Part shown: in pieces, positions 4,580 to 32,333 of the stretch | How the letters are laid out: each line of letters opens with the position of its first letter | Position numbering within the stretch: position 1 is the stretch's first letter | NCBI GenBank assembly: GCA_023137125.1 | Contig: JAGLPW010000107.1 | Coordinates: 1 to 60,517, forward strand | DNA: 60,517 nucleotides | Reading direction: 5' to 3' | From: Candidatus Cloacimonadota bacterium | GTDB taxonomy: Bacteria > Cloacimonadota > Cloacimonadia > Cloacimonadales > TCS61 | Translations under genes and position numbers: made by a program | The notes under the pieces: model-generated | Seen by the model: the letters and a program-made list of their open reading frames with translations, nothing else | Database searches by the model: none | Told to the model about the DNA's origin: nothing

Positions 4580-4589
4580 TTTCCATCCC

Positions 4590-5885: not shown

Positions 5886-5945
5886 CAAATAAAAAAGCCA
5901 TACGAATAATCGTACAGCTTAATAATAATGGGGTGGGTGATGGGA
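5886..5945 (-). other. Decayed copy of the tRNA-His 3' end followed (minus strand) by a hairpin and T-run
   Basis: 5929-5945 tggggtgggtgatggga matches 31882-31898 tggggtggatgatggga at 16/17 positions, and the adjacent 9 nt match 7/9. On the minus strand it is followed by gctgtacgattattcgtatggc and then TTTTTTATTT. Confidence 0.6.
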
Positions 5946-6156
5946 ACACAAAAGTTATGGATACTTGGGGACAACAATTTTATAAAGAAATCAAAAATAT
6001 ATAGACAATAATGAACGTCCTTAATCATGATTCGGAGTCAACTACTCTTCGTTATATAGGCTGGGATCAGGAGATCATCGACGATGCTATGGAGAGAATA
6101 GAGGAACTCTATAATCTGTAACATTCACATAAGCATTCTTCTCAGAATTATATATT

Positions 6157-7806
6157 TCATTTCAACAACAAACATTTCTTAACTACTTCAGTTTTACCAT
6201 TCACATTTAGTTTGTAAAGATAAACACCTGAACTGACAGAATTTCCAAAATCATCATCACCATTCCAGATAATTGAATGCTCTCCTGTAGGGATTTGGTC
6301 GTTTAAAAGTGATTTTATCTTCTGTCCTTTGATGTTGTATATACTTAGTTCAACTTCAGATTCTTCATGGATTGAGAAAGAAATTGTTGTAGTGGGATTG
6401 AAGGGATTGGGGTAATTAGTTAAAACATTAATTGTCGTAATTATTTCATCTTCAATAGAAGTAATATTATCTATCTTTGCTACAAATATATCAGAATTCC
6501 CACTACTGGTTAGATTAAAGGAACCAAAACTTGCTATTCCTCTATAATATCCTGTTACATACACATTTCCTTCGGCATCTGTGCTTATTGCAAATCCATT
6601 ATCATAAGTACTTCCCCCGGCACTTTCTGCCCAAATCCAATTACCGTTAGAATCCATCTTTGTAACAAAAATATCTCTCTCACCACTGCTGGTTAAATTA
6701 AAAGAGCCAAAACTTGCTGTGCCATGAAAATATCCTGACACGTAGACATTCTCATCAATGTCTGTGCTTATTCCAGATCCACCATCATACTCACTTCCCC
6801 CAGCATTTTTTGCCCAGATCCAATTTCCATTAGGATCCATCTTTGCTACAAAAATATCAGAGACCCCATTGCTGGTTAGATTATAAGAACCAAAATTTGC
6901 TAAATAATCAAAATATCCAGTTACATATACATTCCCATCAGCATCTGTGTTTATTGCTTTTCCTATATCCCCATAACTTCCCCCAGCACCTTCTACCCAG
7001 AGCCAGTTACCATTAGGATCCATCTTTGCTACAAAAATATCATGGTCCCCACTACTGGTTAAATTGAAAGAACCAAAACTTCCTGTTCCTCGGAAAGATC
7101 CAGTTACATATAAATTCCCATCAGCATCTGTGCTTATTCCAGATCCACCATCATACTCACTTCCCCCAGCATTTTTTGCCCAGAGCCAGTTACCATTAGG
7201 ATCCATCTTTGCTACAAATATATCATCATCTCCATTGCTGGGAAGATCAAAAGAACCAAAACTTGCTGTTCCTTCGAAAATTCCTGTTACATATACATTC
7301 CCATTAGAGTCTGTGCATATTGCAATTCCGTATTCTAAATCACTTCCCCCAGCACTTTCTGCCCAGAGCCAGTTACCATTAGGATCCATCTTTGCTACAA
7401 AAATATCATAGGCCCCATTGCTGGTTAGATTAAAAGAACCAAAATTTGCTGAATAATCAAAATACCCAGTTATATATACGTTTCCATCAACGTCTGTGCT
7501 TATTCCAAATCCACAATCATCAGAACTCCCACCGGCATTTTCTACCCAGAGCCAATTACCATTTGCATCCATCTTTGCTACAAAAATATCAGAGCTCCCA
7601 CTGCTGGTTAAGTTAAAAGAACCAAAACTTGCTGTACCAGAGAAATTTCCAGTTACATATACATTCCCATCACCATCTGTGCTTATTCCAGATCCACCAT
7701 CATAATTATTCCCTCCGGCACTTTCAGCCCATAACCATTCAGGTGCTTGGGCAAAAAGTAAAAATGAAAGTGTAATAAATAATAAAATTGAAAGTAGCCT
7801 TTTCAT
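6157..7806 (-). CDS. Secreted beta-propeller-repeat (SBBP-like) protein with T9SS C-terminal sorting domain
   Basis: Start at MKRLLS (GGAGGA RBS). Signal peptide, seven 61-aa NGNWLW..AGG..DGNVYVTG..SFGSFNLTS..DIFVAKMD repeats, and a C-terminal NYPNPFNPTTTISFSI...LLLK. Confidence 0.8.
   Translation of the reverse strand: MKRLLSILLFITLSFLLFAQAPEWLWAESAGGNNYDGGSGISTDGDGNVYVTGNFSGTASFGSFNLTSSGSSDIFVAKMDANGNWLWVENAGGSSDDCGFGISTDVDGNVYITGYFDYSANFGSFNLTSNGAYDIFVAKMDPNGNWLWAESAGGSDLEYGIAICTDSNGNVYVTGIFEGTASFGSFDLPSNGDDDIFVAKMDPNGNWLWAKNAGGSEYDGGSGISTDADGNLYVTGSFRGTGSFGSFNLTSSGDHDIFVAKMDPNGNWLWVEGAGGSYGDIGKAINTDADGNVYVTGYFDYLANFGSYNLTSNGVSDIFVAKMDPNGNWIWAKNAGGSEYDGGSGISTDIDENVYVSGYFHGTASFGSFNLTSSGERDIFVTKMDSNGNWIWAESAGGSTYDNGFAISTDAEGNVYVTGYYRGIASFGSFNLTSSGNSDIFVAKIDNITSIEDEIITTINVLTNYPNPFNPTTTISFSIHEESEVELSIYNIKGQKIKSLLNDQIPTGEHSIIWNGDDDFGNSVSSGVYLYKLNVNGKTEVVKKCLLLK
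6463..7746 (-). repeat. Seven tandem 183-bp coding repeats
   Basis: ccagttaccattaggatccatctttgctacaaa recurs at about 7003, 7186 and 7369, with variants at about 6637, 6820 and 7552. The period is 183 bp. Confidence 0.85.
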
Positions 7807-7828
7807 CTTTTCCTCCAAAATAAATAGC

Positions 7829-7878
7829 TGCTAATGTTTCGCATGTACTGTGAAATAATACTGACACGCTTGTTATGT
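7829..7878 (-). repeat. attC-like site, short type, minus orientation
   Basis: The minus strand reads acataacaagcgtgtcagtattatttcacagtacatgcgaaacattagca, about 80 percent identical to the 50-nt site at 28643-28692. Confidence 0.75.
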
Positions 7879-7899
7879 GAAATAAAACTCATCATTTGA

Positions 7900-8472
7900 T
7901 TATTTAACCTGGATAAGAAGATTTATTTCCAGACCACTAATTGTTTCTTCAAAATTAAGATCACTAAACATCGAAGCACTTAAGCCAATTTTCTTATAAA
8001 TCATTTTGTTTAGAGTTAGTTTTATTGGCAATGTTATGAATTTATCAAATGTAGACTTTGCCGGACCTGCTTTATCTTGGTTGGTCTTTCTTTGAATAAA
8101 ACCAACTCCAGCAAAAGCAGTAAGATTAAAATTTTTAAATGAATAGATTTCTCTACCATATTTCAAAGCAAAAACTAAAAAATCTTTTCCAGTAATATCA
8201 TCATTTATATCCAGTTCTAGTGCAATAGGATTATTATCAAATTTCTTGTAGTTGAATTCGACACATTGGTTTTTCCATTTAACAATTATTCCATAATTTG
8301 GTGATTTATAAAATATTTTATCATAATAATAACTTTTTGGATTGTCTTCAGTATATATTATTGAACGTCCAGCAGTAAATATAATTTGAAAATTACTTCT
8401 TTCTGCCCATAAACTTGATACCAATAATCCCATTATAATTATTATCAGAGTCTTTATTTTTTTCTTTTTCAT
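7900..8472 (-). CDS. Hypothetical secreted protein, possibly a small OM beta-barrel; cassette-borne
   Basis: Signal peptide MKKKKIKTLIIIIMGLLVSSLWA and alternating beta-strand-like pattern. Flanked by the R' half-site at 8509-8531 and the attC-like site at 7829-7878. Confidence 0.55.
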   Translation of the reverse strand: MKKKKIKTLIIIIMGLLVSSLWAERSNFQIIFTAGRSIIYTEDNPKSYYYDKIFYKSPNYGIIVKWKNQCVEFNYKKFDNNPIALELDINDDITGKDFLVFALKYGREIYSFKNFNLTAFAGVGFIQRKTNQDKAGPAKSTFDKFITLPIKLTLNKMIYKKIGLSASMFSDLNFEETISGLEINLLIQVK

Positions 8473-8508
8473 TGTTACTCCATTTTATCGTCTTCTAAGA
8501 TCTAATTC

Positions 8509-8531
8509 ACATAATATTTTACGTGTGCGTC
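8509..8531 (-). repeat. attC-like half-site (3' arm plus R' box only)
   Basis: The minus strand reads gacgcacacg-taaaat-ATTATGT. The following TTATGTGAA is the reverse complement of TTCACATAA at the 7872-7886 box of the next site. No matching 5' arm was found. Confidence 0.45.
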
Positions 8532-8615
8532 GTCCCAAAATATAACTAACAGACAATCCCCGAATCCCCCTCTTCAGGCCAAGAGAGGGATCTTTGGGAT
8601 AAAATATTCATTAGA

Positions 8616-10448
8616 TTACTTCAACATCAACATTTTCTTCATTATTGTTTCATCTTTAGTTGTTAATTTGTAGAAGAATATCCCTGATGACACACTCTTT
8701 TCGTTATTATCCTTGCCATTCCAGACTGTTTCATACGTTCCGGCCAGCTGTTCTCCTTTCACCAGAGTTTTCACGATCTGTCCTTTGATATTGTACACAA
8801 TGAGTTCAATCATACTATCATTTGGTAGAGAATAAGCAATTGTAGTAGATGGATTGAAAGGATTGGGATAATTGGAAGCAACTAAACTGGATGGTAATTC
8901 TGGTATATCTGGTGATGAGGTTCCATCTGAAATTGTTATTGGGTATACATATTGAACAAAATCACCTTCATCACTATAAACATAACTGATCATTCTAGCT
9001 TCTTCACCGGTTTGAATGCCGGATGTAACAGTGAATGATGTTTCATAATAATCACCAGCAATTACAATTTCTTCTTCAAAATAAGGTTCACCAAATTTTG
9101 TATAGTCTACTTCGTAATAGTATCCATTAATAGAATTTGAATAAAAACAATCATATTCTGACTCAAATGCCTTAAATTCACATTGAGAATAATCAATGGA
9201 GGGAAGCTGTCCGGAAATTGAAATATCATCATTATATAATAATATCTCAGGGTTTCCAATAATTGTAATATTCTCATCACGTTGTGGAGAATTCACAAAA
9301 AGCAATGGATCACCTAGTATATTAAATCTCTTGCTATTGATAATACCTGCTCCACTATTTATTTTAGCATCAAGAAGAGCAGCACCCAGATATTGATAAT
9401 CATTTATTATATTCTGGAAAAAAGCAAGAAATAGAACGCTATTACTACCACCACTTGTTGGTGCTCTGGCAGCAATAGAAGCAATTGCCCCACCATCCTC
9501 ATAGGTAAGGAATTGTTCTGCCATACAATCGAACTCCAAAGAACTGAAATCTCCAACACTACCTGAAGCTGCAGTGAATAGAGGAAGATGATCGGTATTT
9601 TGTAATAATTGAAGCTGGGTAGAAACCCTGAAATAGTCCTCATCACCTAGTACATCTTCGTTTCCATGACCAATAAAATGCCATATCAATTGCCCGTCAT
9701 TTACTTTATCAATAACGTCTTGTGCTGCTTCTGGTTTATTCCCATTTGTATTCATTTCATATTCTATACCCAATACACGATCTATCCAAGCTGCATCAGA
9801 TAATGATTCTGCTAATTCTTGTGATCTGGCTGTATGATTCAAACCACTTGAGTAAGATAATCCCTCTAAAGTTCCTCCTTTATGCTCATCATCTGCAACT
9901 ATGAGCATTTTATTTCGCCACCAATCAAGTGTTGGACTTGTGATATACTGAATATTTCTATTGATGATTAGCTCTAATTGTTCTATATTCTGAGCAGGAA
10001 ATCTACCGATAGGGATATCGGGATAGTAATCTGTATCCAGCATGACAAATTCATCATCTGTATACCCAATTACAACTATTCTGTTTTTATCATTGGGAGT
10101 ATTCCATTCTTCAGTTCCACTTCCCATTATAAGAACAGAACTATCCATCCAGATAGATGGGTCATCGAAAAATTCAATGAGATAATCTAGAATCGCTTCC
10201 GGATATGCTACTCCTCCGCTCATTTGATCAAATATGTCTTGTTGATCTACAACAGAACGTACGATTTGAAATTCATTCCAATAGAAATCTGCTAATAGAT
10301 TTGCCTGAGTTAAGAATTCTTCTGGTGCGATAATAATGTGCTGCCCATCACGAGCTCTTTCAATGTGTTTTTGTTGTTTTGAATTTATCGCCTTCAATCC
10401 TATTAATACTAATATCATCATTCCGATTAGTGTAATACGCTTTGCCAT
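8616..10448 (-). CDS. Peptidase C25 (gingipain)-like secreted protein with T9SS C-terminal domain
   Basis: HFIGHGNEDVLG ... LPLFTAASGSVGDF ... NILGDP resembles the gingipain catalytic region. C-terminal NYPNPFNPSTTIAYSL...MLMLK. Confidence 0.65.
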   Translation of the reverse strand: MAKRITLIGMMILVLIGLKAINSKQQKHIERARDGQHIIIAPEEFLTQANLLADFYWNEFQIVRSVVDQQDIFDQMSGGVAYPEAILDYLIEFFDDPSIWMDSSVLIMGSGTEEWNTPNDKNRIVVIGYTDDEFVMLDTDYYPDIPIGRFPAQNIEQLELIINRNIQYITSPTLDWWRNKMLIVADDEHKGGTLEGLSYSSGLNHTARSQELAESLSDAAWIDRVLGIEYEMNTNGNKPEAAQDVIDKVNDGQLIWHFIGHGNEDVLGDEDYFRVSTQLQLLQNTDHLPLFTAASGSVGDFSSLEFDCMAEQFLTYEDGGAIASIAARAPTSGGSNSVLFLAFFQNIINDYQYLGAALLDAKINSGAGIINSKRFNILGDPLLFVNSPQRDENITIIGNPEILLYNDDISISGQLPSIDYSQCEFKAFESEYDCFYSNSINGYYYEVDYTKFGEPYFEEEIVIAGDYYETSFTVTSGIQTGEEARMISYVYSDEGDFVQYVYPITISDGTSSPDIPELPSSLVASNYPNPFNPSTTIAYSLPNDSMIELIVYNIKGQIVKTLVKGEQLAGTYETVWNGKDNNEKSVSSGIFFYKLTTKDETIMKKMLMLK

Positions 10449-10565
10449 AAAAAACCACCTTTATTAATTTTTTTGCAAAGATAATGAAGCTATCAATATA
10501 GTTTAGCAGCTCCCTTAATAATTTATTGTAAAAATTAAAAATATTAGCAATTTCATTTGATGTAC

Positions 10566-12050
10566 TTATTCTAATAATAGCATTTTTTTGTGCAAGCTTT
10601 TTTTACCGGTGATGAGTGTATATAAATAAACACCTGAACTTACTCGTTTATTATTATAATCTCTTCCATCCCAAATAACTGAATGTTGTCCAACTGATAA
10701 TTGATCGTTAAGAAGTGTTATGATTCTTTGTCCTTTGATGTTGGAAATGGATAATTCTACTTTACTTTCTTCTGGAATTGAGAAAGAGATTGTTGTTGTT
10801 GGGTTGAATGGATTTGGATAAGCTGATTTCAGATCAGTACAATCTATTGTTTCTACAAAATCATTATTTAATGCTGTATAATTCCCAGTTGTAAAATGCC
10901 ACATTCCGCTCCAAAGTGATTCATTTTCAGATGTAGATTTTATTCTCCACCAATACTCTGTATCAGGAAGCAATTCCGGAGAAAAAGTGAATGTATTATT
11001 CGAAGTATAAAGCCCATCACCAATGTAAATGAGATTATCATTTGAAATTCCCAAATAAAGCTCATACATAGCACCGGATTCTGCACCTTGCCAAGATAAC
11101 TCACTATTGTAAGCAACATTCTCCGCATGTCTTGTTGGAAAAGGATAACATGCTACATTTAAGTTTGCTGTAAAAGGATAATTAAGAGTACAGAATCCTC
11201 GACTCTCAAGAATTGGAATATGAACTTCCAATGCTTCTTGGGATATTGGATTAGTAAATATCCCAAGATATTGGATATACAAATAATCATCCAAGCCTAG
11301 ATTGGTGTTCTCCACTAACGGAAAAATATCTGTAATTTGGTTATCCTCTAGATGCAAATTATTTAAGTTCGTTAAATTAGAAATTGCTGAGATGTCGGTG
11401 ATCTGGTTGCTCTCTAGATGCAAAATATTCAAACTCAGCATACTGGAAATCGCTGAGATGTCTATGACCTGATTGTTGTCTAATCTAAATAATGTTAAAT
11501 TTGTAAGTCCGGAAAGTGCAGATATATCACTGATTTGATTATTGTACAAACTCAAAATCGTTAAATATGTAAGTCCGGAAAGTGAGATTATGTCACTGAT
11601 TTGATTATTGTGTAAACTCAAATATGTTAAATTTGTCAGTTCGGAAAGTGCGGTTAAATCACTGATCTGATTACCCAATAATTCCAAACGTGTTAAATTT
11701 ATCAGACCAGTAAGTGCATTTATTTCACTGATCTGATTACTCCACAAATCCAAACGCGTTAAATTCGATAGCCCGGACAGAACAGATATGTCACTGATCT
11801 GATTAATATGTAAATCCAACCATATTAAATTCGTTAAGTACTGAGCACCTTCGATAGATATAATATTTGCATTGCTAGCATTCAGAGTCCCGGTTAAACC
11901 ATTCAAATCGGCAATGGTAGGTTCATACTCTGGGGGTTGGCCAAGCGCTTCATTAATTTCTTCTCGGAAATTATCATCCGGTATAATTTGAGCAAAAAGC
12001 CCAAATCCCATAATACTAATAATAACTATTAAAAATAATTTATTACTCAT
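10566..12050 (-). CDS. Leucine-rich-repeat (internalin-like) secreted protein with T9SS C-terminal domain
   Basis: Start at MSNKLF (GGAGGA RBS). About eight 22-aa LTNLTxLxLxxNQISDISxLSG repeats and a C-terminal AYPNPFNPTTTISFSI...MLLLE. Confidence 0.8.
   Translation of the reverse strand: MSNKLFLIVIISIMGFGLFAQIIPDDNFREEINEALGQPPEYEPTIADLNGLTGTLNASNANIISIEGAQYLTNLIWLDLHINQISDISVLSGLSNLTRLDLWSNQISEINALTGLINLTRLELLGNQISDLTALSELTNLTYLSLHNNQISDIISLSGLTYLTILSLYNNQISDISALSGLTNLTLFRLDNNQVIDISAISSMLSLNILHLESNQITDISAISNLTNLNNLHLEDNQITDIFPLVENTNLGLDDYLYIQYLGIFTNPISQEALEVHIPILESRGFCTLNYPFTANLNVACYPFPTRHAENVAYNSELSWQGAESGAMYELYLGISNDNLIYIGDGLYTSNNTFTFSPELLPDTEYWWRIKSTSENESLWSGMWHFTTGNYTALNNDFVETIDCTDLKSAYPNPFNPTTTISFSIPEESKVELSISNIKGQRIITLLNDQLSVGQHSVIWDGRDYNNKRVSSGVYLYTLITGKKSLHKKMLLLE
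11310..11837 (-). repeat. 66-bp periodic LRR coding repeats
   Basis: Recurrent gtcactgatttgattattgt / tcactgatctgatta units with a 66-bp period. Confidence 0.7.
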
Positions 12051-12080
12051 TCTTCCTCCAAACTCATTATTCAATTATAC

Positions 12081-12139
12081 AGATAATGGTTGGCTGCTGC
12101 TCCGCTCTTCTTGCTTGGCTGTGGAGCTGTGTGTTAGTG
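12081..12139 (-). repeat. attC-like site, divergent short variant, minus orientation
   Basis: The minus strand reads CACTAAC-aca-cagctcc...ggagcagcag-ccaacc-ATTATCT. It has the same AAC...ccaaNc-ATTA frame as the plus-strand sites and starts 10 nt after the stop of the 12150-14306 gene. Confidence 0.5.
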
Positions 12140-12149
12140 GCATCTTCCC

Positions 12150-14306
12150 TCATTTTAATAACAAACATTTATTCACTGCTTCGATTTTTCCGTTAATACT
12201 CAGCTTATAGAAATAGATTCCTGATGAGACTTTCTTTCCTGTGAAGTCTTCCCCATTCCAAACTATTGAATGCTCTCCTGCTGATATTTGATTGCTTAAA
12301 AGTGATTTTATCTTCTGTCCCTTGATGTTGTAAATGGATAATTCTACTTTACTTTCTTCAAGAATTGAGAAAGAAATTGTTGTTGTTGGATTGAAAGGAT
12401 TGGGGTGATTTGATAGAATAAATTCTACTATTTGAATTTCATTATCATCTATTTCATTTAATTGATCAAAATAAAATGCTCCCATGTCTGCGATTGTCCC
12501 ATCAGGATCCAAAGGTGATGTAGGATCTCCAGCATCAATACAGGGTGAATTTTCGGTAAGATGATAATCTCCATTTGCTGCATCTACAAATAATGGATTT
12601 GAATCTATATTACCATCTCCTTCCCAACCTCCTTGAATATCGGAATAGATTACTGTAATTGTGTCTAATGATGAACTATAAATTTCTTGCGGGATATTGT
12701 TCCAAAGAATACAATTTACCAAATTTGGATGAGAATCTAAGATACTATAAATTCCACCACCAGTATCATTAGCCGAATTTCCATTGAATGTAACATTGTA
12801 TAAATTTGGATAAGAGTGAAGACAAGTTATTCCTCCACCCATACTTGATTGATTATTGATTATTGACACTTTTGTCAACGTTGGATTAGAATATATAAAG
12901 TATAGTCCACCACCTGAATTTGCAGTATTTTGAAAGAACTTAATATTTAACAAATTCGGTGAAGAATGAGCACAGAATATTCCGCCACCACGACTTGGAG
13001 AAGAAGTAGCATTTCCATTTTGAATAGTCATATTTTTAATGGAAAGATTATTGTCATCCCAACAATATAAGATATTATTTAATCCTTCACTATCAATAAT
13101 TGTATTTTCCATTTCCTCACCTTCTAATGAAATATAGCTTCTGCAATTAATAGGAAATCTTTCTTCTGTTTGAGAAAGTGAATAGATACCATTTTCTAAA
13201 AATATTGTATGCGGATTTAAACTATCTGCAATAACTTTTGCTAACGCATATTCAATATTTAGTAATGGGTCATCGAGAGTAATTCCACTATTCCCATTTG
13301 AACCAAATGAACTAACGTACAAATCACTATTCACCTGATCAATTTTACTATTTAAGATATCAAAAGAAAATTTATCAATTGGATAAGCAAAATATGAATT
13401 TGGTTGCAATACTGTAAAAGTATCAACAATTACATTTATTGTTTGATAATGAATTGTATGTAAATCATTATCCACATTAGCATGATTTAAATAAATATTG
13501 CATCTATTATTAGTATTAAAAAATATATTGGAATCATCAATAAAAATTCCACCTCCTCTTTTGGCAGAATTATTATTGATTGTAACATTAGATAAATTAA
13601 TTTCAGAACCATAATAGAAAATCCCACCGCCTTCTATACCTGCTTGATTATATGATATGTTAACATTCTCTAGTGATACATTTGATTCTGATATAGCAAT
13701 TCCACCACCACTTCCACCGTAAGTTGCATAAGCCGTGTTATTATTTATTCCTACATTCAATAATTGAATATCTGATTCTAAAATAAGTAACCCAGCACCA
13801 TAAAAAAATGAATTATTATTATAAATTAAGGAATTCGTTAATTTTGCATTCGAATTGTAGAAAAAGATTCCTCCTGCATCACCTTCAGAGACATTATCAT
13901 GAATTATTAAATGCTGCAAATATGGATTCGAATTATTAATACAGTTTATCCCAGCACCTATGGAATTTGGCCAAGATCCTTGAGCAAATCCATTAACGAT
14001 AGAAAATCCATATAGTACTGCAGTAGAGTCTTCACCGCTTTCAAAAATCACAACAATCCCATCAATAATTGTCTGAGAAATAAAGCTAGTATCTTGTGTT
14101 GTTAAGAATAATGATGCTATGGTTATGTCTTTGCCATTGTAATTAATATTCTCTGTATAAGTTCCTGGTTGAACTAAAACAGTATCTGCATCTACAGAGA
14201 TATCAATACCAGCTTGTATAGTTGGTTGATCTGCAGGGATATTAATTATGGTTGAATAAAGATTAGAGATAACAAAAACAAATAGTACTATTATTACTTT
14301 TTTCAT
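12150..14306 (-). CDS. Right-handed parallel beta-helix (PbH1/pectate-lyase-fold) secreted protein with T9SS C-terminal domain
   Basis: Repeated GGGI(F/Y)...N(S/N)...I.NN units, a signal peptide, and a C-terminal NHPNPFNPTTTISFSI...CLLLK. Confidence 0.8.
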   Translation of the reverse strand: MKKVIIVLFVFVISNLYSTIINIPADQPTIQAGIDISVDADTVLVQPGTYTENINYNGKDITIASLFLTTQDTSFISQTIIDGIVVIFESGEDSTAVLYGFSIVNGFAQGSWPNSIGAGINCINNSNPYLQHLIIHDNVSEGDAGGIFFYNSNAKLTNSLIYNNNSFFYGAGLLILESDIQLLNVGINNNTAYATYGGSGGGIAISESNVSLENVNISYNQAGIEGGGIFYYGSEINLSNVTINNNSAKRGGGIFIDDSNIFFNTNNRCNIYLNHANVDNDLHTIHYQTINVIVDTFTVLQPNSYFAYPIDKFSFDILNSKIDQVNSDLYVSSFGSNGNSGITLDDPLLNIEYALAKVIADSLNPHTIFLENGIYSLSQTEERFPINCRSYISLEGEEMENTIIDSEGLNNILYCWDDNNLSIKNMTIQNGNATSSPSRGGGIFCAHSSPNLLNIKFFQNTANSGGGLYFIYSNPTLTKVSIINNQSSMGGGITCLHSYPNLYNVTFNGNSANDTGGGIYSILDSHPNLVNCILWNNIPQEIYSSSLDTITVIYSDIQGGWEGDGNIDSNPLFVDAANGDYHLTENSPCIDAGDPTSPLDPDGTIADMGAFYFDQLNEIDDNEIQIVEFILSNHPNPFNPTTTISFSILEESKVELSIYNIKGQKIKSLLSNQISAGEHSIVWNGEDFTGKKVSSGIYFYKLSINGKIEAVNKCLLLK

Positions 14307-14333
14307 TACGATCTCCTAGTTAATGAAAAATTC

Positions 14334-15650: not shown

Positions 15651-15769
15651 AATAATCCCCCAATTTTTTTATTAGTGAATATTCAAATTAATATCTCTTA
15701 TATTTATATAGATTAATTTATTAATATATTTGGGTGACTACATATGCTAACATTAATGATCATTAATGA

Positions 15770-21378: not shown

Positions 21379-21602
21379 TTTTCAGTTCCCTTCTTTATTT
21401 TAGGTATTAAACACTTCTCTTTTAAATTTCCTTAATAAATACATGTCAATAAAAAAATATCTCGCAAAAACAAGACAGCTGATTATTTATTTCAATTTTC
21501 TTATTCTCATGCTTCAAAATTATTTTAATTGCTTTCATCACTACATCAATCACGGTATTTACAGTATCCTGGATCGCCTCCTTTTTATAATATCAAAAGC
21601 TT

Positions 21603-22922: not shown

Positions 22923-22972
22923 TAGATCCTCCTATATATTAGGAATATAACCAAATCCAAAATAGTCGAAAA

Positions 22973-24019: not shown

Positions 24020-24237
24020 TGCTAACTCCTTATTATAAAAGTTAATATGAATTGTTCAATTATTAAAGCGCCACTTACAGTGCTCGTAGATAGAAAGAAA
24101 ACTTTTCTCATTTTTTACCTCCCAATTCTCGTCAGACAATCTATGGAGTCTGATCTGTTAATATATACATTCTTTATCAAACGCCTAACATCTCAATAAA
24201 CTGAGATGTTCGCAGTATAATCTCTTCCCAATATTTA

Positions 24238-25044: not shown

Positions 25045-25528
25045 AAAGCACTCCTTTGTTAAAATAGTTAGGCAGCAATGAAGATTAAAAGAAGTGCAAG
25101 TTTATTATAAGAGAGTCAGAAGTATATAAGCATATACAAACTTTACACTTCCTTATCTACAAAGGAAGAAATTTCCCTATCTTTTATTTTGTCAATCATT
25201 TCATATAAATTTCATATGAATTATAGTTTGTAAAAGTACTTTTAAGGTCAATGTGAATATGGGAAAGTTCTCTAAAATAAAAGAAAGGTATTTCTCTTTT
25301 CAGAGGGCTGTCAGGAACATATATCTATTGGCAGGGGGTGTCCCCCTTCTTTGGGGGCTTCCAATTCACTAATAGATATCTTAATTCATAATATTAGAGA
25401 ACTAATCTCAGTAACCGATTCATTAAGAACTATCAAATACTATTATTCTTAACACTAAAATGATTTAAAGTAAATATCTTTTATAATTTGCTTAATAAGA
25501 ACAAAAGGAAAACTCATGAAATTAATTT

Positions 25529-25633
25529 ATGGCGTCATAACTCCCAATTTAAAAGTTATGACGCCATAAAATCTCGTAACTATAGGTTGGTTATGCGCCA
25601 CAAAAAAATAGACGCAGCGTACATATGTTACAG
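25529..25633 (+). other. Conserved cassette-array leader A (hairpin, conserved blocks and GTTACAG box)
   Basis: About 85 percent identical to 59611-59714 in three blocks: atggcgYcataactcccaatttaaaagttatgacg, gtaactataggttggttatgcgc and cgcagcgtRcatatgttacagg. Confidence 0.65.
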
Positions 25634-25994
25634 GCAGTTGGGAACATTAAGTCCGGTGTAGAAGTAACTTCGGGTTGAAACTGATTTTCTAAAACTGGAC
25701 AATTTTTGGAAGCCGACAAAAGTCGGAAAATAAGTTTGTATAACGAAAAGGATAACGGAATTTGCGGTGGAAGTTCAGGATAAGCAAATTTTTTGCCAAT
25801 TCGCCGGAAACTACGACCTGTACGTTCAGTGAAAGTTCCAGCTCAAAGTTTTGAAGTTAATTAGAAGATATAAATCGTGGGTTACCTTTACAGGAATTCA
25901 GAGGTGCAATTGTCACAAAATTTGCAAGTGCTCCTCCACTGTTGTTTGGGCAAATTCCATTCCATTTTCTTATTTGTCCGGTGGAAAGAACTGC

Positions 25995-26122
25995 CTGTAA
26001 CAGGCGTATCTGCGGTAGTGCTGGTTTGTTTGTTTTGGTTTGAATCTAACGATTCAAACTTTGGTTAGTTTGCTTAACGCTGGGATCGTAACCGATCCCG
26101 CCGCATACGCAAAACATTATAC
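25995..26122 (+). repeat. attC-like site 0 (128 nt)
   Basis: CTGTAAC-agg-cgtatCTgcgg ... tttgaatctaacgattcaaa ... gggatcgtaaccgatccc-gccgcatacg-caaaac-ATTATAC. Confidence 0.8.
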
Positions 26123-26138
26123 GTTTCAGGGAGTGTAA

Positions 26139-27248
26139 GTGAAAATAAAATTATTGTTAATAATAGTTTTAAGTCTTTATATAGGATTTTTATATTGTTC
26201 TCTTGAAATTACTGAAATCACTGAAACATACAATAATGGAGCAACAAAAAGAGAAGTATTTTATTTAGGTAATAAAAACACGGAAACTATTTATAGAAAA
26301 AATGGGTCAATACATTTCGTAAAGAGGTATATGGGAGGATATTCAAAAATTGGAACATGGATAGAGTACAATAAAGATGAGCGTGCAGTTAAAGCAGGGA
26401 ATTTTATTGTTGGTGAAAAAGAAGATTCTTTTTTAAAAGATATAAAAGATGGATATTACAATGAGTTTTTCGATAAAGATAAACTCTCTTTAACTACTTT
26501 TTTCTTTGAAAATAAAATTAATGGTGTATGGTTAGAATACTATTCAAATGGAAATTTAAAGTGTAAAGGTATTGTTATAGATGGATACTTTGAAGAATTG
26601 GAACATTATAATGAAGATGGCGTAAAACTTAATGTTGAATTAGAAAATGGAAACTATTCTCACACCATATATTTCAATGATATTGGTAAATTTGAATATT
26701 ATTTTTCACGTAAACTAGATTCTGAAAGTTCAATAATTGAAAGTATGGATTTTGGTTATTATGAAAATGGACATTTACGTAGCGTCGAACAAAAAAATGA
26801 ACATACAGAAATTGATCTTACTTTCTGGGATAATGCAAATATTAAACAACTATATAATACCAATTTGAAGTCTGGTATTTCAAACTTAATAAAGTTTCAT
26901 GAAAATGGAAGAGTAAAAGTAAGTGGTTTTTCTCGAGACAATTCTAATATTGGTAAAATATATGAATACTTTGAATCAGGCAAGATAAAGCAAATTGTTA
27001 AATTTCCTAACGAATCAAAAGACCCCTTTGATCTGGAAGAAATTTCAGAATATTACGAAAATGGTAATCTTAAGTATAAACTTTGTTATGTTGAAAAAAA
27101 AGTTTACAAATCTTTTTCATATTATGCTAAAAATGGTGAATTGATTTTTGAATCATCTGAGCAAGATGATATTGAAAAACTAGTTAGAGTATGGTCTGGT
27201 GGAGCTACATACACAATTGAATTTGACGAAACAAAAGTCGGAAAATGA
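26139..27248 (+). CDS. Secreted MORN-variant / YwqK-like repeat protein (cassette 1)
   Basis: GTG start with AGGGAG RBS and a signal peptide. Repeats such as INGVWLEYYSNGNLKCKG, ISEYYENGNLKYK and GKIYEYFESGKIKQ. Confidence 0.7.
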   Translation: MKIKLLLIIVLSLYIGFLYCSLEITEITETYNNGATKREVFYLGNKNTETIYRKNGSIHFVKRYMGGYSKIGTWIEYNKDERAVKAGNFIVGEKEDSFLKDIKDGYYNEFFDKDKLSLTTFFFENKINGVWLEYYSNGNLKCKGIVIDGYFEELEHYNEDGVKLNVELENGNYSHTIYFNDIGKFEYYFSRKLDSESSIIESMDFGYYENGHLRSVEQKNEHTEIDLTFWDNANIKQLYNTNLKSGISNLIKFHENGRVKVSGFSRDNSNIGKIYEYFESGKIKQIVKFPNESKDPFDLEEISEYYENGNLKYKLCYVEKKVYKSFSYYAKNGELIFESSEQDDIEKLVRVWSGGATYTIEFDETKVGK

Positions 27249-27251
27249 AAC

Positions 27252-27377
27252 GTATAACAAGCGTATCTGCGGGTGGGTTCATTATTCTTTCCAGCTTGAA
27301 TCTTACGATTCAAACCTTGTTTTATTTGTTTCGGGGCGTGATCGTTCCGATCCCGCCGCACACGCAAAACATTAGCA
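27252..27377 (+). repeat. attC-like site 1 (126 nt)
   Basis: GTATAAC-aa-gcgtatctgcgg ... ttgaatcttacgattcaa ... gatcgttccgatc-ccgccgcacacg-caaaac-ATTAGCA. Confidence 0.8.
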
Positions 27378-27463
27378 ACGGCGGGTAACATAAGTAGAAA
27401 CATAATAGAAGTTAGATATATGTGATTCATAAAAAAAGATTATTAAACAATTGGAGGGAAAAA

Positions 27464-28633
27464 ATGAAACGTTTTTTTGTAGTAATTACATTTTTTTTAA
27501 TATCTTTAAATGTATTCTCACAAATTCCAGATAATATTATTAGAGATGATGAAATTTTGGTAGAACAATTCGTAGATGATTGGCAGGCTGAGAATTGGAT
27601 ATACGATGAACATCATATTTACGAGTATAATGATGAAAATTTGCTGTCAGAATATACAATAATGAAATTCATAGATGATGAATGGCACAATAGTAAATTA
27701 CGGACTTATACCTACGATCCAGATGGATTATTAACAGAAATGATAGTTTTCAATACTTCTTATGGAGAATGGATTAATTACCAAAAATATACTTATGCTT
27801 ATTTCGAAAACAATCTGTTAAGTGAATATATTTACAGTATGTGGGAAAATGATTTATGGGAAGCAAGATATCGACACCAGTATATTTATAATGATAATCA
27901 ATTATTAATAAAGCATTATAGGGATGAATGGACAGGCTCAGGATGGCATGCAGAATATGGTAATTGGTTTTCATATAATTCGAATGAAGAATTAATTGAG
28001 GATTTAGCAAAAAGGTGGATTGGGTACTGGACAAATAATAGTCGTCATGAATATAGTTACAATTCTCATGGGGATTGTGAGACTTATCTTTTTTTCATTT
28101 GGGATGATGAATTCTATGAATGGTGGTTAATGAATGATTATTTCTATGAATACGAATATGAAAATAACATAAAGATTACAAAAACTACTTCATATTATTC
28201 AAATTATGATAATAAAGAAGTTTACTCTTATAATATCAATGGTAATCTTATAGAAACAATACAACAGGATTGGTCTTCAGGAACATGGATAAATGACGCA
28301 CGTATTTCTTCAATTTATGAAACTACACATGTTTATGAATATGAAATTGTAAATCAAAAGAATACAATCAATGTTTTTCCAAATCCATTCAATCCATTAA
28401 CAACAATAGAGTTTTCTATCTACAACGATTCAAAAGTTGAACTTACAATATACAACATAAAAGGCCAAAAAATTAAAACCTTAGCTCAAAATGAATTTAC
28501 AAAAGGTTTACATTCAATTATTTGGAATGGTGATGATGAATTGAATAATCCTGTTAGTTCAGGAACCTATTTCTACAAATTAAATATAAATGGTAAAACT
28601 GAAGCAGTCAAGAAGTGTTTGCTTTTAAAATGA
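27464..28633 (+). CDS. Hypothetical secreted W/Y/E-rich protein with T9SS C-terminal domain (cassette 2)
   Basis: Start taken at MKRFFVV (GGAGGG RBS); the listed ORF starts at GTG 27422. C-terminal VFPNPFNPLTTIEFSI...CLLLK. Confidence 0.7.
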   Translation: MKRFFVVITFFLISLNVFSQIPDNIIRDDEILVEQFVDDWQAENWIYDEHHIYEYNDENLLSEYTIMKFIDDEWHNSKLRTYTYDPDGLLTEMIVFNTSYGEWINYQKYTYAYFENNLLSEYIYSMWENDLWEARYRHQYIYNDNQLLIKHYRDEWTGSGWHAEYGNWFSYNSNEELIEDLAKRWIGYWTNNSRHEYSYNSHGDCETYLFFIWDDEFYEWWLMNDYFYEYEYENNIKITKTTSYYSNYDNKEVYSYNINGNLIETIQQDWSSGTWINDARISSIYETTHVYEYEIVNQKNTINVFPNPFNPLTTIEFSIYNDSKVELTIYNIKGQKIKTLAQNEFTKGLHSIIWNGDDELNNPVSSGTYFYKLNINGKTEAVKKCLLLK

Positions 28634-28642
28634 TAGAGATGT

Positions 28643-28692
28643 TGCTAACAAGCGTGTCAGTTTAGTTTCACTGCACACGCAGAACATTAGCA
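28643..28692 (+). repeat. attC-like site 2 (50 nt, short type)
   Basis: TGCTAAC-aag-cgtgtcag-tttagtttca-ctgcacacg-cagaac-ATTAGCA. Confidence 0.8.
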
Positions 28693-28719
28693 GAAATAGT
28701 GTAATAATCAGGAGATATT

Positions 28720-29478
28720 ATGATTGATTTCCAGCAAAAAATGCTTGAAGAACTCAACAAAGATTACAAGTTCTATTTAGGTGAACATCATATAGAATTA
28801 TTTTTACAGAAATATAAAACTCCAGAATTGACTAAAGATGATGTTCTTAATTTATTAGGTGACTTGCTATCAAGAAATTTAATTTACACTAATATTTGTA
28901 ATCGTATGTCAAATAATTGGTTTTATGTTTTATCTCCAAAAGGTAAAATATCATTAAATTCAGGTGATTATGACCCTTACAATGAAACAAGTTATATTAC
29001 ACATCTTGAAAGTGAAATTCCAAATATATCCGAAGATGTTTTAATTTATACTAAAGAATCAATAAAAAGTTTTAACAATCAATGTTATCTTGCAAGTGCA
29101 GTAATGATTGGTGTTGCTTCTGAATGTGCATTTAACGAAATGCTTTTAAACTTTTCATCTTGGCTAAAAGCTGGTAAAGAAAAAACAAAATTCTTAGGTT
29201 TTCAAAATAATTCGAGGATTATGTTTATAAACAAATTCATAGATTTTAGAAAATCAATACAAGTCAGAAAAACACAATTACCTAAGGATTTATCTGACAA
29301 TATGGCTTTAACTTTTGATGCAATATTAGATTTATTGCGAATTTATCGAAATGAGTCTGGTCATCCAACAGGAAAATTTATATCTCACAATAGTGCATTT
29401 CTAAACCTAAATATGTTTGCTCGATACTTACAGAAACTTTATTTGTTTAGGGATTTTTTTTATGTTAATAAAGAATAA
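28720..29478 (+). CDS. Hypothetical protein with HEPN-like Rx4H motif (cassette 3)
   Basis: AGGAG RBS. All-alpha-looking sequence. C-terminal LLRIYRNESGHPTG contains R-x4-H with N after the R. Confidence 0.5.
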   Translation: MIDFQQKMLEELNKDYKFYLGEHHIELFLQKYKTPELTKDDVLNLLGDLLSRNLIYTNICNRMSNNWFYVLSPKGKISLNSGDYDPYNETSYITHLESEIPNISEDVLIYTKESIKSFNNQCYLASAVMIGVASECAFNEMLLNFSSWLKAGKEKTKFLGFQNNSRIMFINKFIDFRKSIQVRKTQLPKDLSDNMALTFDAILDLLRIYRNESGHPTGKFISHNSAFLNLNMFARYLQKLYLFRDFFYVNKE

Positions 29479-29490
29479 TAGAATGACTTC

Positions 29491-29614
29491 TGCTAACAAA
29501 CGTGTCAGCGGTTCAGTCTGTCGGTGCTCTTTGCCTGAATCGTTCCGATTCAGGGTTTAGCGGTTTGTACGGGCTGAATCATTCTGATTCCACCGCACAC
29601 GCCAAACATTAGCT
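29491..29614 (+). repeat. attC-like site 3 (124 nt)
   Basis: TGCTAAC-aaa-cgtgtCAgcgg ... cctgaatcgttccgattcagg ... ggctgaatcattctgattcc-accgcacacg-ccaaac-ATTAGCT. Confidence 0.8.
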
Positions 29615-29647
29615 GAAATTATGTAATTGTTTAAAGATGGTGAATTA

Positions 29648-31606
29648 ATGAATAGAATTAAGTTTTATAGTCCTTCTGATATGTCTGTGGGACACAATCT
29701 TGAGCGAGCATTTGAAATTATAAAAAGTTTTGATTTTAATAGAGATGATTATGGTATAAATGAAATCATTGAGTTTTATAATATTAGCTGTTATATTGAT
29801 AATAACTTATTTTTAACGAGCTGGTCAAAAAGTGACTTAGAAGAAATTAAGATAGTTACAAAACAATATAAGATACTTCTAAGTAAAATTTACAATAATA
29901 TTAGTGATGATAATTTAAGTAATCTATTTAAGAATGTAGAAAGAAATTATACTGATAACTTTTGGGAACTATTTAATAAATATAAGGTTTATAAAAATAT
30001 AACAGAGAAAGAATTCGAAATAATATTAAATGATCTGAACCCTTCATTATTTGAGCTTCTCCAAAACAAACATTTAATAAACTATTTTGAAGTCTCTATC
30101 AGAAACTACATATTGTCTGATTCTAAGAATGCTGAAATATTATTAGATAAGTATGAAGTAAAAAATATGTTTGGAGAAACAAAAATATATTTCCCAAATA
30201 AACTTACTAATAAAGATAAAGAATTAGTAATTCATCAATATATTGATAGTGAGAATGCAAATCTAAATTATCTTAGACTAATTGAGAATATACAGAGCAG
30301 AAAAGATTTATTGGAAATTTCAGACAGAACTCGACTAAAGGCAAAAAAAGTAATTCAAATAAAAAATGAAGAGTTTTTTAAGATAAATGCGGGAATGAAA
30401 TTTGGCATTTCTGTACAATTTCGAGAAGATCAGGAAATTGAACTTGTAGAAAAGAAGGTTGGCAGTATCCTTAAATATTCATATAGTTCAAAGTGGATAC
30501 AAACAAACAATGATTATAGTACTTTGCTCAATAATTTTGTTCATTTGTTCAATTATACAGATTTACAAATGCGCATATCTTTGGTTAGTAAGCCAAATGA
30601 ACTTGGTTTATTTGAAAAGCATATAGGTCTCCAATCTCAGAGCGCATACGTAACAGGTTTAGTTTACTCTCAAAAAAACAATTTATCTATTCTTCAATTA
30701 ATTGGTTATTCTCATCAATTAGAAATAATGGATATTAGCATTGAAAAATTAATTGAGTGGTTTTTTAAAGAGTATCTTCTAAATGAATTCAATATAAAAA
30801 ACTATAGAATAACATTGCCTTCAAATAACTCGAAATTTTTAGAAAAATGTAGAGCAATCCTCCCCGAAATTGAAAGTGTTTTAAAGCAATTCAATTTATT
30901 TATTGAGGATGGTGAGATAAATCAGGAATTGTTTCAAATGTCTTCTGGTCATCTTCTTTTTAGTAATTGTAAAAGCTTAATTGATAAAAAATATATTTAC
31001 CCTCGTGAAGGTGATTTTGTACGAATTTCTTATTACTTTTTTTCAGACCAATGTATGTTAGCTTACGTAAAAAGAATAGAAGATAAATATTCCAATTTTT
31101 TTGAACTTCTTATAAAAGAGTCTATTTATTTTGAAGATTATCCTGAATATCTTAAACCCGATCTAAAATGGTTACTAGAGAACGAATATATAACAATAAA
31201 TGAAAACAAAGAATTAATGTTTTCTAATTTTCTACAAATATTCATTTTAAAAGATTTATATGATAATGAAGTTATTAATTATTGGAATAAATCATCAAAA
31301 TATCAAATTGAAATTGATAAATTATTAAAAAATGGCTTATTTAAATCAGAAAGTTCTTTGTTTTCTAAACCTGAACAAGATTATTTTAATTATCATTTAA
31401 ATAAATCCAAGTTCAACAATTCGTTGGATTTAAGAAATATGTATAGTCACGGCACTCAGCCAAATGATGAAGATGATAATGAAAAACACCAAAACCACTA
31501 TTTGATTTTTCTAAAACTCTTTATTTTATTAATCATCAAAATTAATGATGAGTGTTGCATAGTAAATAACCCTAACTATTTAAAAAAAGATTCAAGTAAT
31601 GAGTAA
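29648..31606 (+). CDS. Large hypothetical protein with C-terminal HEPN-like Rx4H motif (cassette 4)
   Basis: Start taken at MNRIKFY (GGTGA upstream); the listed ORF starts at TTG 29627. Near the C-terminus, SLDLRNMYSHGTQP contains R-x4-H. Confidence 0.5.
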   Translation: MNRIKFYSPSDMSVGHNLERAFEIIKSFDFNRDDYGINEIIEFYNISCYIDNNLFLTSWSKSDLEEIKIVTKQYKILLSKIYNNISDDNLSNLFKNVERNYTDNFWELFNKYKVYKNITEKEFEIILNDLNPSLFELLQNKHLINYFEVSIRNYILSDSKNAEILLDKYEVKNMFGETKIYFPNKLTNKDKELVIHQYIDSENANLNYLRLIENIQSRKDLLEISDRTRLKAKKVIQIKNEEFFKINAGMKFGISVQFREDQEIELVEKKVGSILKYSYSSKWIQTNNDYSTLLNNFVHLFNYTDLQMRISLVSKPNELGLFEKHIGLQSQSAYVTGLVYSQKNNLSILQLIGYSHQLEIMDISIEKLIEWFFKEYLLNEFNIKNYRITLPSNNSKFLEKCRAILPEIESVLKQFNLFIEDGEINQELFQMSSGHLLFSNCKSLIDKKYIYPREGDFVRISYYFFSDQCMLAYVKRIEDKYSNFFELLIKESIYFEDYPEYLKPDLKWLLENEYITINENKELMFSNFLQIFILKDLYDNEVINYWNKSSKYQIEIDKLLKNGLFKSESSLFSKPEQDYFNYHLNKSKFNNSLDLRNMYSHGTQPNDEDDNEKHQNHYLIFLKLFILLIIKINDECCIVNNPNYLKKDSSNE

Positions 31607-31632
31607 GGTTAATTTCTTATATAATAAAATTC

Positions 31633-31716
31633 AGCTAACAAACGTGTCAGCGGGTAAGCTGGGTGGTTTGTTTGGGCTGAATCGTACCGATTCAGGGTTT
31701 GGTCGGTTTGTTTTGG
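31633..31716 (+). repeat. attC-like site 4, truncated (5' arm and first internal hairpin only)
   Basis: AGCTAAC-aaa-cgtgtcagcgg ... ggctgaatcgtaccgattcagg-gtttggtcggtttg. Homology to site 3 then stops, and there is no ccgcacacg...ATTA arm. Confidence 0.65.
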
Positions 31717-31828
31717 ACGTGATTGTATTCTTAAAGAGAATATATAAAGGCAAGGACAGAAAATATTCTGTTTTTGTTGTTTTTGTATAGATTTCACAAC
31801 GATTTTCACAACGATTATAGAATTACTA

Positions 31829-31873
31829 CAAAAAAAATATGGCACAACTCATCATCTGTGAATAAGTTATGCC
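31829..31873 (-). terminator. Rho-independent terminator of the tRNA operon
   Basis: The minus strand reads GGCATAACTTATTCACAGATGATGAGTTGTGCC, then ATATTTTTTTTG, immediately after tRNA-His. Confidence 0.6.
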
Positions 31874-31881
31874 AATAACTA

Positions 31882-31957
31882 TGGGGTGGATGATGGGATT
31901 TGAACCCACAACGCCCGGAACCACAATCCGGTGCTCTACCGTTGAACTACACCCACC
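31882..31957 (-). tRNA. tRNA-His (GTG)
   Basis: The reverse complement reads GGTGGGTGTAGTTCAACGGTAGAGCACCGGATTGTGGTTCCGGGCGTTGTGGGTTCAAATCCCATCATCCACCCCA. Cloverleaf folds by hand, G(-1):C73 is present, and CCA is encoded. Confidence 0.9.
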
Positions 31958-31967
31958 ATAAAAAAAA

Positions 31968-32044: not shown

Positions 32045-32055
32045 ATCCTAAAATT

Positions 32056-32256: not shown

Positions 32257-32333
<77 letters not shown>

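Follow-up and report, generated by a model that had tools for sequence, protein, structure and literature searches.

A probable decayed tandem array of tRNA-His-targeted integrative elements in a Cloacimonadota genome

Why does the 3′ end of a tRNA-His gene recur within the adjoining 26 kb of a bacterial chromosome, and how did the genes between the copies arrive there? The locus that raises this question was analyzed as a 60.5-kb stretch of DNA (hereafter, the window) with a G+C content of about 33%. Its RNase G (32451-33935) shares 86-96% identity with proteins from metagenome-assembled genomes (MAGs) of Candidatus Cloacimonadota, including Ca. Tenebribacter burtonii and Ca. T. mawsonii, and the source of the window is a Tenebribacter-like Cloacimonadota genome. 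An intact tRNA-His gene bounds the 26-kb stretch on one side and a hydrogenase operon on the other (Table 1). The explanation that we favor, at a probability of roughly 0.8, is that this stretch represents a tandem array, now decayed, formed by at least two integrative elements from a Cloacimonadota family that targets the tRNA-His 3′ end. The original prediction, made from the sequence of the window, had interpreted the repeats as attachment (att) scars left by successive insertions of elements carrying an attP. This interpretation is supported by the homology of the remnant and its terminator, by integrase-side remnants and a complete element in related genomes, and by an element arm (P′) preserved in the middle of the array.

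The att core corresponds to the 3′-terminal 17-27 nt of the intact tRNA-His gene (attL side), in which, as read from the sequence, both G-1 (position 31957) and the CCA end are encoded. The terminal TGGGGTGGATGATGGGA (31882-31898) recurs as TGGGGTGGGTGATGGGA at 5929-5945 with 16 of 17 nucleotides identical, just as had been predicted, and with 17 of 18 if the preceding A is included; shuffled sequences predict 0.06 matches per window for this 18-mer with up to three mismatches. The predicted third copy is an exact 12-nt recurrence of TATGGGGTGGAT at 17.1 kb, and with up to one mismatch allowed this string matches only there and at the tRNA (0.25 matches expected). All three copies share one strand. 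At 5-10 nt beyond each of them the minus strand carries a hairpin with a T-run, and the hairpin differs from copy to copy, in agreement with the original prediction: all three (5920-5895, 17084-17050, and 31874-31840) passed the terminator scan, with folding energies of -13.5, -24.0, and -17.5 kcal/mol for the copies at 5.9, 17.1, and 31.8 kb, respectively (z = -5.8, -8.0, and -6.3 vs. shuffled sequences). The further claim that seven of nine flanking nucleotides match has to be corrected to six of nine (caataacta vs. taataataa); the flank at 5.9 kb is AT-rich and uninformative in this respect, being in fact homologous to the native terminator of relatives. Independent assemblies from other samples (L001, L002, L101, and L102; L-numbers denote retrieved loci of relatives, about 119 in all) agree with the window in this arrangement, 17.1-kb junction included, and therefore the junctions are not assembly artifacts. 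Exact-protein look-ups for strain variants lacking one of the segments returned identical arrangements only.

The copy at 5.9 kb is the displaced original 3′ end of the tRNA gene, since together with its hairpin (GCCATACGAATAATCGTACAGC) it aligns with the end of tRNA-His and the native terminator in the relatives L003, L005, and L010 (71-82% identity over 55-118 nt). In these three loci a hairpin of the GCCGYACG...CGTRCGGC type directly follows the intact tRNA-His, and the hairpin in the window is also homologous to the terminators after the tRNA-His remnants of the integrase-bearing loci L084 and L108. The island is thus bounded by an intact tRNA gene and a same-strand direct repeat of its 3′ end, and this displaced repeat carries the original downstream flank of tRNA-His. 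Relatives keep 27 nt at the remnant, and the copy in the window seems to have lost approximately 5-7 nt of the T-loop part. The stem of the adjacent hairpin is retained through G-U pairs in the minus-strand transcript only, and the hairpin probably now terminates the upstream gene (6157-7818), which encodes a protein sorted by a type IX secretion system (T9SS). A 36-aa open reading frame (ORF) close to this end (6011-6121, MNVLNHDSESTTLRYIGW...) was considered as the C-terminus of a tyrosine recombinase and rejected, as it found no support in a tblastn search with the L084 integrase, in Pfam at E ≤ 10, or from the family hidden Markov model.

What kind of element occupied this site is seen from relatives that still possess an integrase. 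A metagenome scan with the Fer4_22 protein, the first of the hydrogenase operon (4590-5588), yielded L084 (83% identity) and L086 (79%), both of which have no tRNA and carry a perfect tRNA-His 3′ remnant with a native-type terminator approximately 310 nt upstream of the Fer4_22 gene. The L084 remnant is 27 nt long and ends with GAACCCA; it is followed by a conserved stretch and three TTCACAACG repeats (two direct and one inverted), beyond which are encoded a 369-aa protein with the Phage_int_SAM_5 and Phage_integrase domains and, farther on, an excisionase-like HTH_17 protein. Homologs of this integrase are 58-77% identical within its clade (73% for L103 and 64% for L107 when computed directly). 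Each of the seven loci from the tRNA-His clade (L103-L109) has its remnant at 150-250 nt upstream of the integrase gene (int), the order being remnant, approximately 158 nt, TTCACAACG repeats, and int. Intact members of the family encode a tyrosine integrase of 366-369 aa and share a backbone formed by int, a 446-532-aa protein, the HTH_17 protein, and two proteins of 116-125 and 600-641 aa, the larger of which faintly resembles helicases; apart from the recognized genes, the backbone has no Pfam match.

A complete element is available on the 89-kb contig NODE_18, which is covered by two overlapping loci (L103 and L011, identical in the overlap). It spans 13,043 bp from the remnant to the intact tRNA-His, so the lengths found here for the two segments in the window, 11.1 and 14.8 kb (about 11 and 14.8 kb in the original prediction), are comparable to it. 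The NODE_18 element has a P′ arm of the same type at the tRNA (type B, see below) and carries as cargo a 1272-aa T9SS protein that is 42% identical to the product of 12150-14306 in the window. Between its remnant and the genomic tRNA, the T-loop differs and the terminal 17 nt are identical; we therefore place the strand exchange inside these 17 nt. An empty and occupied pair is provided by L005, with an intact tRNA, the native terminator, and lon, and by L108 and L109, where the remnant with the same terminator and lon flank adjoins the P arm and int. Identity between the two states ends after GAACCCA, which is the stop position in all remnants.

Three further observations concern the recombinases of this group. 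An integrase of the same family, with 60% identity, is found in L110 (9830-10001) next to the 3′ end of another tRNA (TGGCGGAGAGTCAGGGATTCGAACCC), with a single TTCACAACG; L110 and the tRNA-His clade form a natural pair for studying a shift of target specificity. In L086 (1-480, reverse strand), tandem TTGTTGCATAA repeats and a 5′-truncated XerC/D-like recombinase, different in type from the L084 integrase, are located approximately 280 nt from the same tRNA-His remnant; it seems that at least two recombinase families use this site, and L086 may represent an intermediate state. Scans of IMG/VR for the arm-repeat and core/P-arm patterns gave no matches, and the integrase relatives in that database are only 27-34% identical; the element family is not a recognizable phage.

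The evidence for two insertions, rather than one, comes from the P′ arms. At the intact tRNA, the type-B flank common to the window, L007, and L011 consists of tandem TTTCACAACGAT repeats and a GGCAYAACTCA hairpin. The repeats hold the same position in L007, L011, and L107, and the hairpin, which is distinct from the native terminator, now ends the tRNA operon. The window contains three copies of the motif TTCACAACG, against an expected 0.27; two are beside the intact tRNA and one is at 17014, and all lie on one strand within 90 nt of a core. The spacing from the core-proximal TTCACAACG to TATGGGGTGGAT is exactly 75 nt at both 31.8 and 17.0 kb, so that the 17.0-17.1-kb region is in register, through arm repeats, hairpin, and core, with the P′ arms of the tRNA flank in the window, L007, L011, and L107. 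Tandem TTCACAACG repeats about 75-78 nt from a core, with a private hairpin between, are therefore present at 31792-31881 and, with one repeat decayed, at 17013-17088. The 8 nt beyond the middle core differ from the tRNA by four transitions only (ATAACAAGAT vs. ATGATGGGAT), which fits decay of a core in an AT-rich genome, and the decayed core may extend to approximately 17108. Since arm repeat, private hairpin, and core are all in register, the middle copy is a true element-end junction, and we accept two element-derived segments, 5946-17088 and 17101-31881. Every att component of the window has homologs among the loci described above. An undecayed junction with the order P′ arm, hairpin, core, P arm, and int exists in L107, where it is either an attP or the junction of a tandem array. 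The genes upstream of that junction (L107, 1-9640), encoding a SNF2/PLD helicase, an Eco57I-type restriction-modification enzyme, and a CAP12-PCTIR TIR protein, are defense-island cargo of the same att system.

Table 1. Features of the tRNA-His island and its borders in the window (positions in nt; strand and supporting data where available)
Feature	Position	Strand	Basis or comment
Group-4-like [NiFe]-hydrogenase/Complex-I-like operon, chromosomal flank	199-5588	-	Pfam
Native tRNA-His terminator, displaced with the remnant	5895-5920	-	GCYGYACG...CGTRYGGC type
Displaced tRNA-His 3′ end (attR-side remnant)	5928-5945	+	17/18; aligns with relatives
Segment 1, 11.1 kb	5946-17088	genes all -	Pfam, PHROG, composition
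Sigma-70-like regulator, segment 1	15770-16774	-	PHROG sigma factor
P′ arm of segment 1	17013-17088	+	Intact repeat, decayed first repeat, private hairpin
Intact arm-type repeat TTTCACAACGTT	17013-17024	+	75 nt from core
Private terminator hairpin, segment 1	17050-17084	-	Terminator scan and folding
Middle core copy TATGGGGTGGAT	17089-17100	+	12/12
Segment 2, 14.8 kb	17101-31881	mixed	Pfam, PADLOC, composition
Intergenic repeat, about 130 nt	25994-26125, 27252-27380, 29490-29617, 31630-31726 (partial)		Also in L007 (955-1085, 2186-2314)
Short form of the repeat, about 55 nt	28643-28697; 7820-7878	latter -	
Tandem arm-type repeats TTTCACAACGAT (two copies), P′ arm of segment 2	31792-31815	+	Second copy starts 75 nt before core
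Element-supplied intrinsic terminator, type-B flank	31840-31874	-	Terminator scan, folding
Intact tRNA-His (GTG)	31882-31957	-	ARAGORN; Rfam RF00005, 60.3 bits; 31882-31956 is the called gene
tRNA cluster Met-Met-Arg-His	31882-32333	-	ARAGORN; transcribed away from RNase G; tRNA-His last

We propose that the tyrosine integrase of the family recombines an attP core mimicking the tRNA-His 3′ end with the chromosomal gene, the core copying approximately the last 27 nt of tRNA-His and strand exchange occurring within the terminal 17 nt. By analogy with lambda- and Bacteroides-type systems, the integrase would bind the repeated TTCACAACG arm-type sites on both sides of the core. The inserted element would contribute both a 3′-end copy and a terminator hairpin of its own, completing the tRNA operon, which stays intact because the element brings this terminator; the original 3′ end and the native terminator would be displaced to the far end, beside the integrase gene. 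A second insertion would convert the first boundary into an internal junction of P′ arm and core, and repeated insertions would build a tandem array. Both integrase-proximal backbones, including the P arm, int, and other backbone genes, would later have been lost from the window, presumably by deletion rather than replacement, leaving two integrase-less segments, similar to cis-mobilizable elements (CIMEs), locked in the chromosome. The function of the arm sites and the order of the insertions are parts of this reconstruction that we infer.

The original prediction that no integrase is left in either segment was confirmed: no ORF of at least 70 aa in the 5.9-31.9-kb region has a recombinase Pfam domain, and a profile of 120 family integrases, applied at maximum sensitivity to the whole window translated in six frames, gave no match (best E = 1). 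At the homologous position, L084 and L103-L109 do have an integrase. The P arm, i.e., the CCAATT..TTGACA.. stretch with TTCACAACG repeats, is likewise absent to the right of both 5945 and 17100; neither end of the island retains an integrase, and neither the combination of P arm and int nor the five-gene backbone is found in the window. Since the P arm is missing at both distal cores, at least approximately 5 kb must have been lost per segment, from inside or at the core. The 548 nt between the middle core and the end of the neighboring tetratricopeptide repeat (TPR) gene (17101-17648) contain no ORF longer than 55 aa and have no similarity to P arms or integrases; they may be a residue of the deleted backbone or a long 3′ untranslated region.

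Several observations weigh against the proposed tandem array, in particular against the assignment of all intervening genes to it. In composition, the 17.1-25.1-kb interval is core-like, and the genes at 6157-25044 run opposite to the direction of cargo in intact elements. The sigma-70-like gene has orthologs with 72-77% identity in other Cloacimonadota, followed by T9SS cargo and with no core or arm motif nearby, and the three-gene TPR module has few and distant homologs, which occur in att-free contexts. In tblastn searches against the window, the backbone proteins of L084, L103, L107, and L110 had no match at E ≤ 0.01. Because integrase, P arm, and backbone are all gone, membership in the family rests on P′ arms of approximately 100 nt and on the cores, the middle one of which is exact over 12 nt only, and both the putative binding to arm sites and the position of the crossover are deduced from sequence. 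In addition, no empty junction between tRNA-His and the hydrogenase operon was found in a genome scan with RNase G or a metagenome scan with Fer4_22. Both scans gave occupied or truncated contigs only (occupied in L084 and L086, breaking off too early in L083 and L085). The more distant loci L088 and L089 keep the order of RNase G, tRNAs, and hydrogenase; the last two are separated by 7-9 kb of ordinary genes, and a remnant is absent.

The first five of these points can be read together: the att scars would be real, and much of what lies between them was never cargo, the sigma/T9SS cluster (6.1-16.8 kb) and the block from the TPR module to an endonuclease gene (17.6-25.0 kb) having been placed there by rearrangement, backbone replacement, or capture. 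Such a history is possible, if in our view less likely than not, as intact elements do carry T9SS cargo, the sigma/T9SS clusters of relatives are located in variable neighborhoods rich in restriction-modification genes, the 6-13- and 13-17-kb parts are compositional outliers, and the whole interval varies between relatives. It refines the explanation by tandem integration and does not exclude it. Since the sigma/T9SS cluster and the TPR module are att-free in relatives, part of the content need not be element cargo, and some of the DNA between the cores may have been captured or rearranged after integration.

The compositional data that bear on this point are heterogeneous. The 25.1-31.9-kb part (28.8% G+C) is an outlier in tetranucleotide composition and similar to the L007 island, and its genes are directed to the P′ arm, the orientation seen in intact elements; it looks like canonical cargo. 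The 13.0-17.1-kb part (28.3% G+C, against a comparison value of 34-35%) is a tetranucleotide outlier as well, and the 6-13-kb part also deviates. The comparison of segments with flanks suggested in the original prediction thus separates 6-13, 13-17, and 25-32 kb from the core-like remainder. Gene content downstream of tRNA-His differs in every relative examined, and the island therefore combines variable content with atypical composition everywhere except in its core-like 17-25-kb part. The original statement that everything between the copies is accessory holds insofar as the region is hypervariable among relatives, and it is weakened by the sigma/T9SS cluster and the TPR module being att-free elsewhere.

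It is improbable, although not without precedent, that both segments came as one pre-formed accreted composite instead of by two separate insertions in the lineage. Transfer of accreted tandems made up of ICEs (integrative and conjugative elements) and CIMEs is documented (PMC5704250), and a P′-core-P junction such as that of L107 could travel in this way, but the middle P′ arm and core in the window are more decayed than the tRNA-proximal ones, with one arm repeat lost and transitions in the core, which suggests different ages. A single integration, in which the 12-mer at 17.1 kb is a chance match inside one 26-kb island, would explain why the exact match is limited to 12 nt and why no P arm or integrase adjoins it; it is very improbable nonetheless, because a hairpin and an arm repeat precede the 12-mer at the same 75-nt spacing as at the tRNA, and in the window the 9-mer TTCACAACG is otherwise found only beside the intact tRNA, so that the chance occurrence of the composite TTCACAACG-N66-TATGGGGTGGAT is about 1e-5 or less. 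We can practically dismiss an unrelated G-rich motif or decayed duplicates of the tRNA gene without site-specific integration, for which only the shortness of the repeats speaks, since in the approximately 119 retrieved loci TGGGGTGGAT occurs solely at tRNA-His genes or at integrase-adjacent remnants, contrary to the common motif that the original prediction had named as its refutation, and identity stops after GAACCCA in all remnants.

The interval between tRNA-His and the hydrogenase operon is an old variable spot, as L088 and L089 hold other genes there. An ancestral operon shared with these loci was considered, given products of 311, 291, and 641 aa in the window and of 319, 334, and 639 aa there, and was dropped, since the proteins have no sequence similarity and the genes after tRNA-His in L089 are an unrelated MBL/NMT1/SpoIIE set. 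Both loci contain, at the same place, a peroxiredoxin (AhpC-TSA) gene split into adjacent ORFs of 83 and 132-137 aa (L089, 6981-7700; L088, 5188-5907, minus strand); the in-frame stop, which is conserved, may encode selenocysteine instead of marking a pseudogene.

Many proteins of the window have C-terminal FlgD_ig and Por_Secre_tail sorting domains of the T9SS, as identified by Pfam. In segment 1, four such proteins are encoded (718 aa; a leucine-rich repeat (LRR) protein, 502 aa; a C25 peptidase, 610 aa; and an SBBP beta-propeller protein, 553 aa), in addition to proteins of 438 and 190 aa and the sigma-70-like regulator. A module that recurs in Cloacimonadota (5946-16774; L116-L119) consists of this regulator and, after it, T9SS-sorted proteins in varying combination (C25 peptidase, beta-helix, LRR); in relatives, restriction-modification genes often follow the module. 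In segment 2, the minus-strand genes at 17.6-25.0 kb encode the TPR module, an amidohydrolase, a metallophosphatase, and a non-specific endonuclease, whereas those on the plus strand at 25.1-31.9 kb encode a MORN protein, a T9SS-sorted protein, a 252-aa protein, and a 659-aa protein. The latter (29627-31606), which adjoins tRNA-His, is a full-length match to the PADLOC candidate defense family PDC-S56 (E = 5e-232) without a Pfam domain; PDC-S56 is not mentioned in the literature searched. As this was the sole PADLOC match among ten island proteins, the block from the TPR module to the endonuclease is no known defense system.

Two kinds of intergenic elements were observed in the island. A structured repeat of approximately 130 nt, with a short form of approximately 55 nt, occupies the gap from a gene's stop to the start of the gene after it; its closing stem GCGTGT..GCGG / CCGC..ACACGC (10 pairs, one compensatory) encloses two hairpins, and it has no Rfam match. 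The repeat could be a leader, stabilizer, or attenuator of T9SS-cargo genes or a repeat of the repetitive extragenic palindromic type. A 21-nt promoter-like motif, AAATACTATTATTCTTGACAC, is found upstream of the sigma-like gene (16811-16831, minus strand) and, with one mismatch, at 25435-25455 (plus strand; 0.01 expected), in the divergent region upstream of the gene row 26139-31606. It also precedes sigma orthologs (L116, 9888-9906; L117, 3140-3158) and occurs inside the integrase-bearing element of L110 (20518-20536), and it might link the regulation of the two segments. The L110 gene that follows the motif was considered as a sigma homolog and is not one.

Outside the island, the hydrogenase operon, with 49 kDa/NiFe, 30 kDa, 20 kDa, NuoH-like, Fer4, FAD/NAD-binding, and Fer4_22 domains, is syntenic in L084-L086, L088, and L089. 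At the gathering threshold, Rfam recovered the four tRNAs of the window and nothing else. The sign of GC skew flips near 25 kb and again at 46 and 54 kb; a replication origin at approximately 25 kb was set aside, since the skew tracks the switch of gene strand and the change recurs elsewhere. Six contigs of relatives (L003, L006, L008, L010, L012, and L015) end inside or just past the tRNA cluster, which fits assembly breaks caused by repeats, or by variation among strains, downstream of tRNA-His.

Both members of the array have parallels in well-studied bacteria. CIMEs and the tandem accretion of islands derived from ICEs and from integrative and mobilizable elements, with a three-step accretion scheme, were described around ICESt1/ICESt3 of Streptococcus thermophilus (PMC5704250). 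The window shares with them site-specific integration into a conserved gene at its 3′ end, decay of the resident element to an att-flanked island, and tandem arrays formed by insertion into att sites, and its segments, like CIMEs, are att-flanked and without integration or transfer genes. In contrast to those tandems, both members here are decayed, with eroded cores (16/17; 12 nt exact) and without P arms, their host phylum is uncultivated, and no conjugation or mobilization genes (oriT/Mob) were recognized in intact members of the family. Tandem ssrA-specific islands of Dehalococcoides (PMC3146451) similarly lie downstream of a small-RNA gene, with direct 3′-end repeats of approximately 20 bp, insertion in the T-loop region, an integration module at the edge that is missing from some islands, and niche-specific cargo. 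They use the serine recombinase DsiB and a tmRNA target, whereas the Cloacimonadota family has a tyrosine integrase with arm-type repeats, tRNA-His as a target, and T9SS surface and defense cargo rather than reductive dehalogenases.

The Phage_int_SAM_5 and Phage_integrase architecture, to which integrase relatives also add Arm-DNA-bind_5, presumably places the integrase close to those of the Bacteroides NBU1/NBU2-type integrative mobilizable elements (IntN1/IntN2), a likeness of domain architecture. Elements of that type also insert at a tRNA-gene 3′ end and have a short common core; they have another target tRNA and other arm-site sequences than the Cloacimonadota family, in which no oriT/Mob genes were identified. 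In lambda-type attP, the core is flanked by arm-type repeats that bind the integrase. The family has, in the same manner, 9-12-nt motifs that are repeated on the two arms and keep fixed distances from the core, as well as an excisionase-like HTH_17 protein, although binding is suggested here by position and conservation.

Tandem tRNA-targeted islands that decay to integrase-less relics are textbook biology, and therefore the value of the present case lies in annotation and comparison rather than in concept. The paper that names the genus Tenebribacter (PMC8542988) is silent on integrases, mobile elements, and tRNA genes; no described mobile elements of Cloacimonadota were found in the literature searched, in which the att system and backbone of the tRNA-His family appear undescribed. 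It is doubtful that the integrase-less segments of the window are still captured and moved by accretion and cis-mobilization when a new element lands at the intact attL core, and that the family is a major vehicle of T9SS-secreted surface proteins and phage-defense genes among Cloacimonadota; the loss of P arms argues against cis-mobilization. The finding explains the hypervariability and the assembly breaks downstream of tRNA-His in Tenebribacter-like MAGs, and it provides a sequence-defined att system (core, arm repeats, and integrase) for a phylum without cultured members. The biology of the feature is ordinary: bacteria are well known to acquire accessory genes by this route, and the present example comes from a phylum that has been little studied, with T9SS surface proteins, a sigma-like regulator, and the PDC-S56 candidate defense gene as part of a flexible gene pool.

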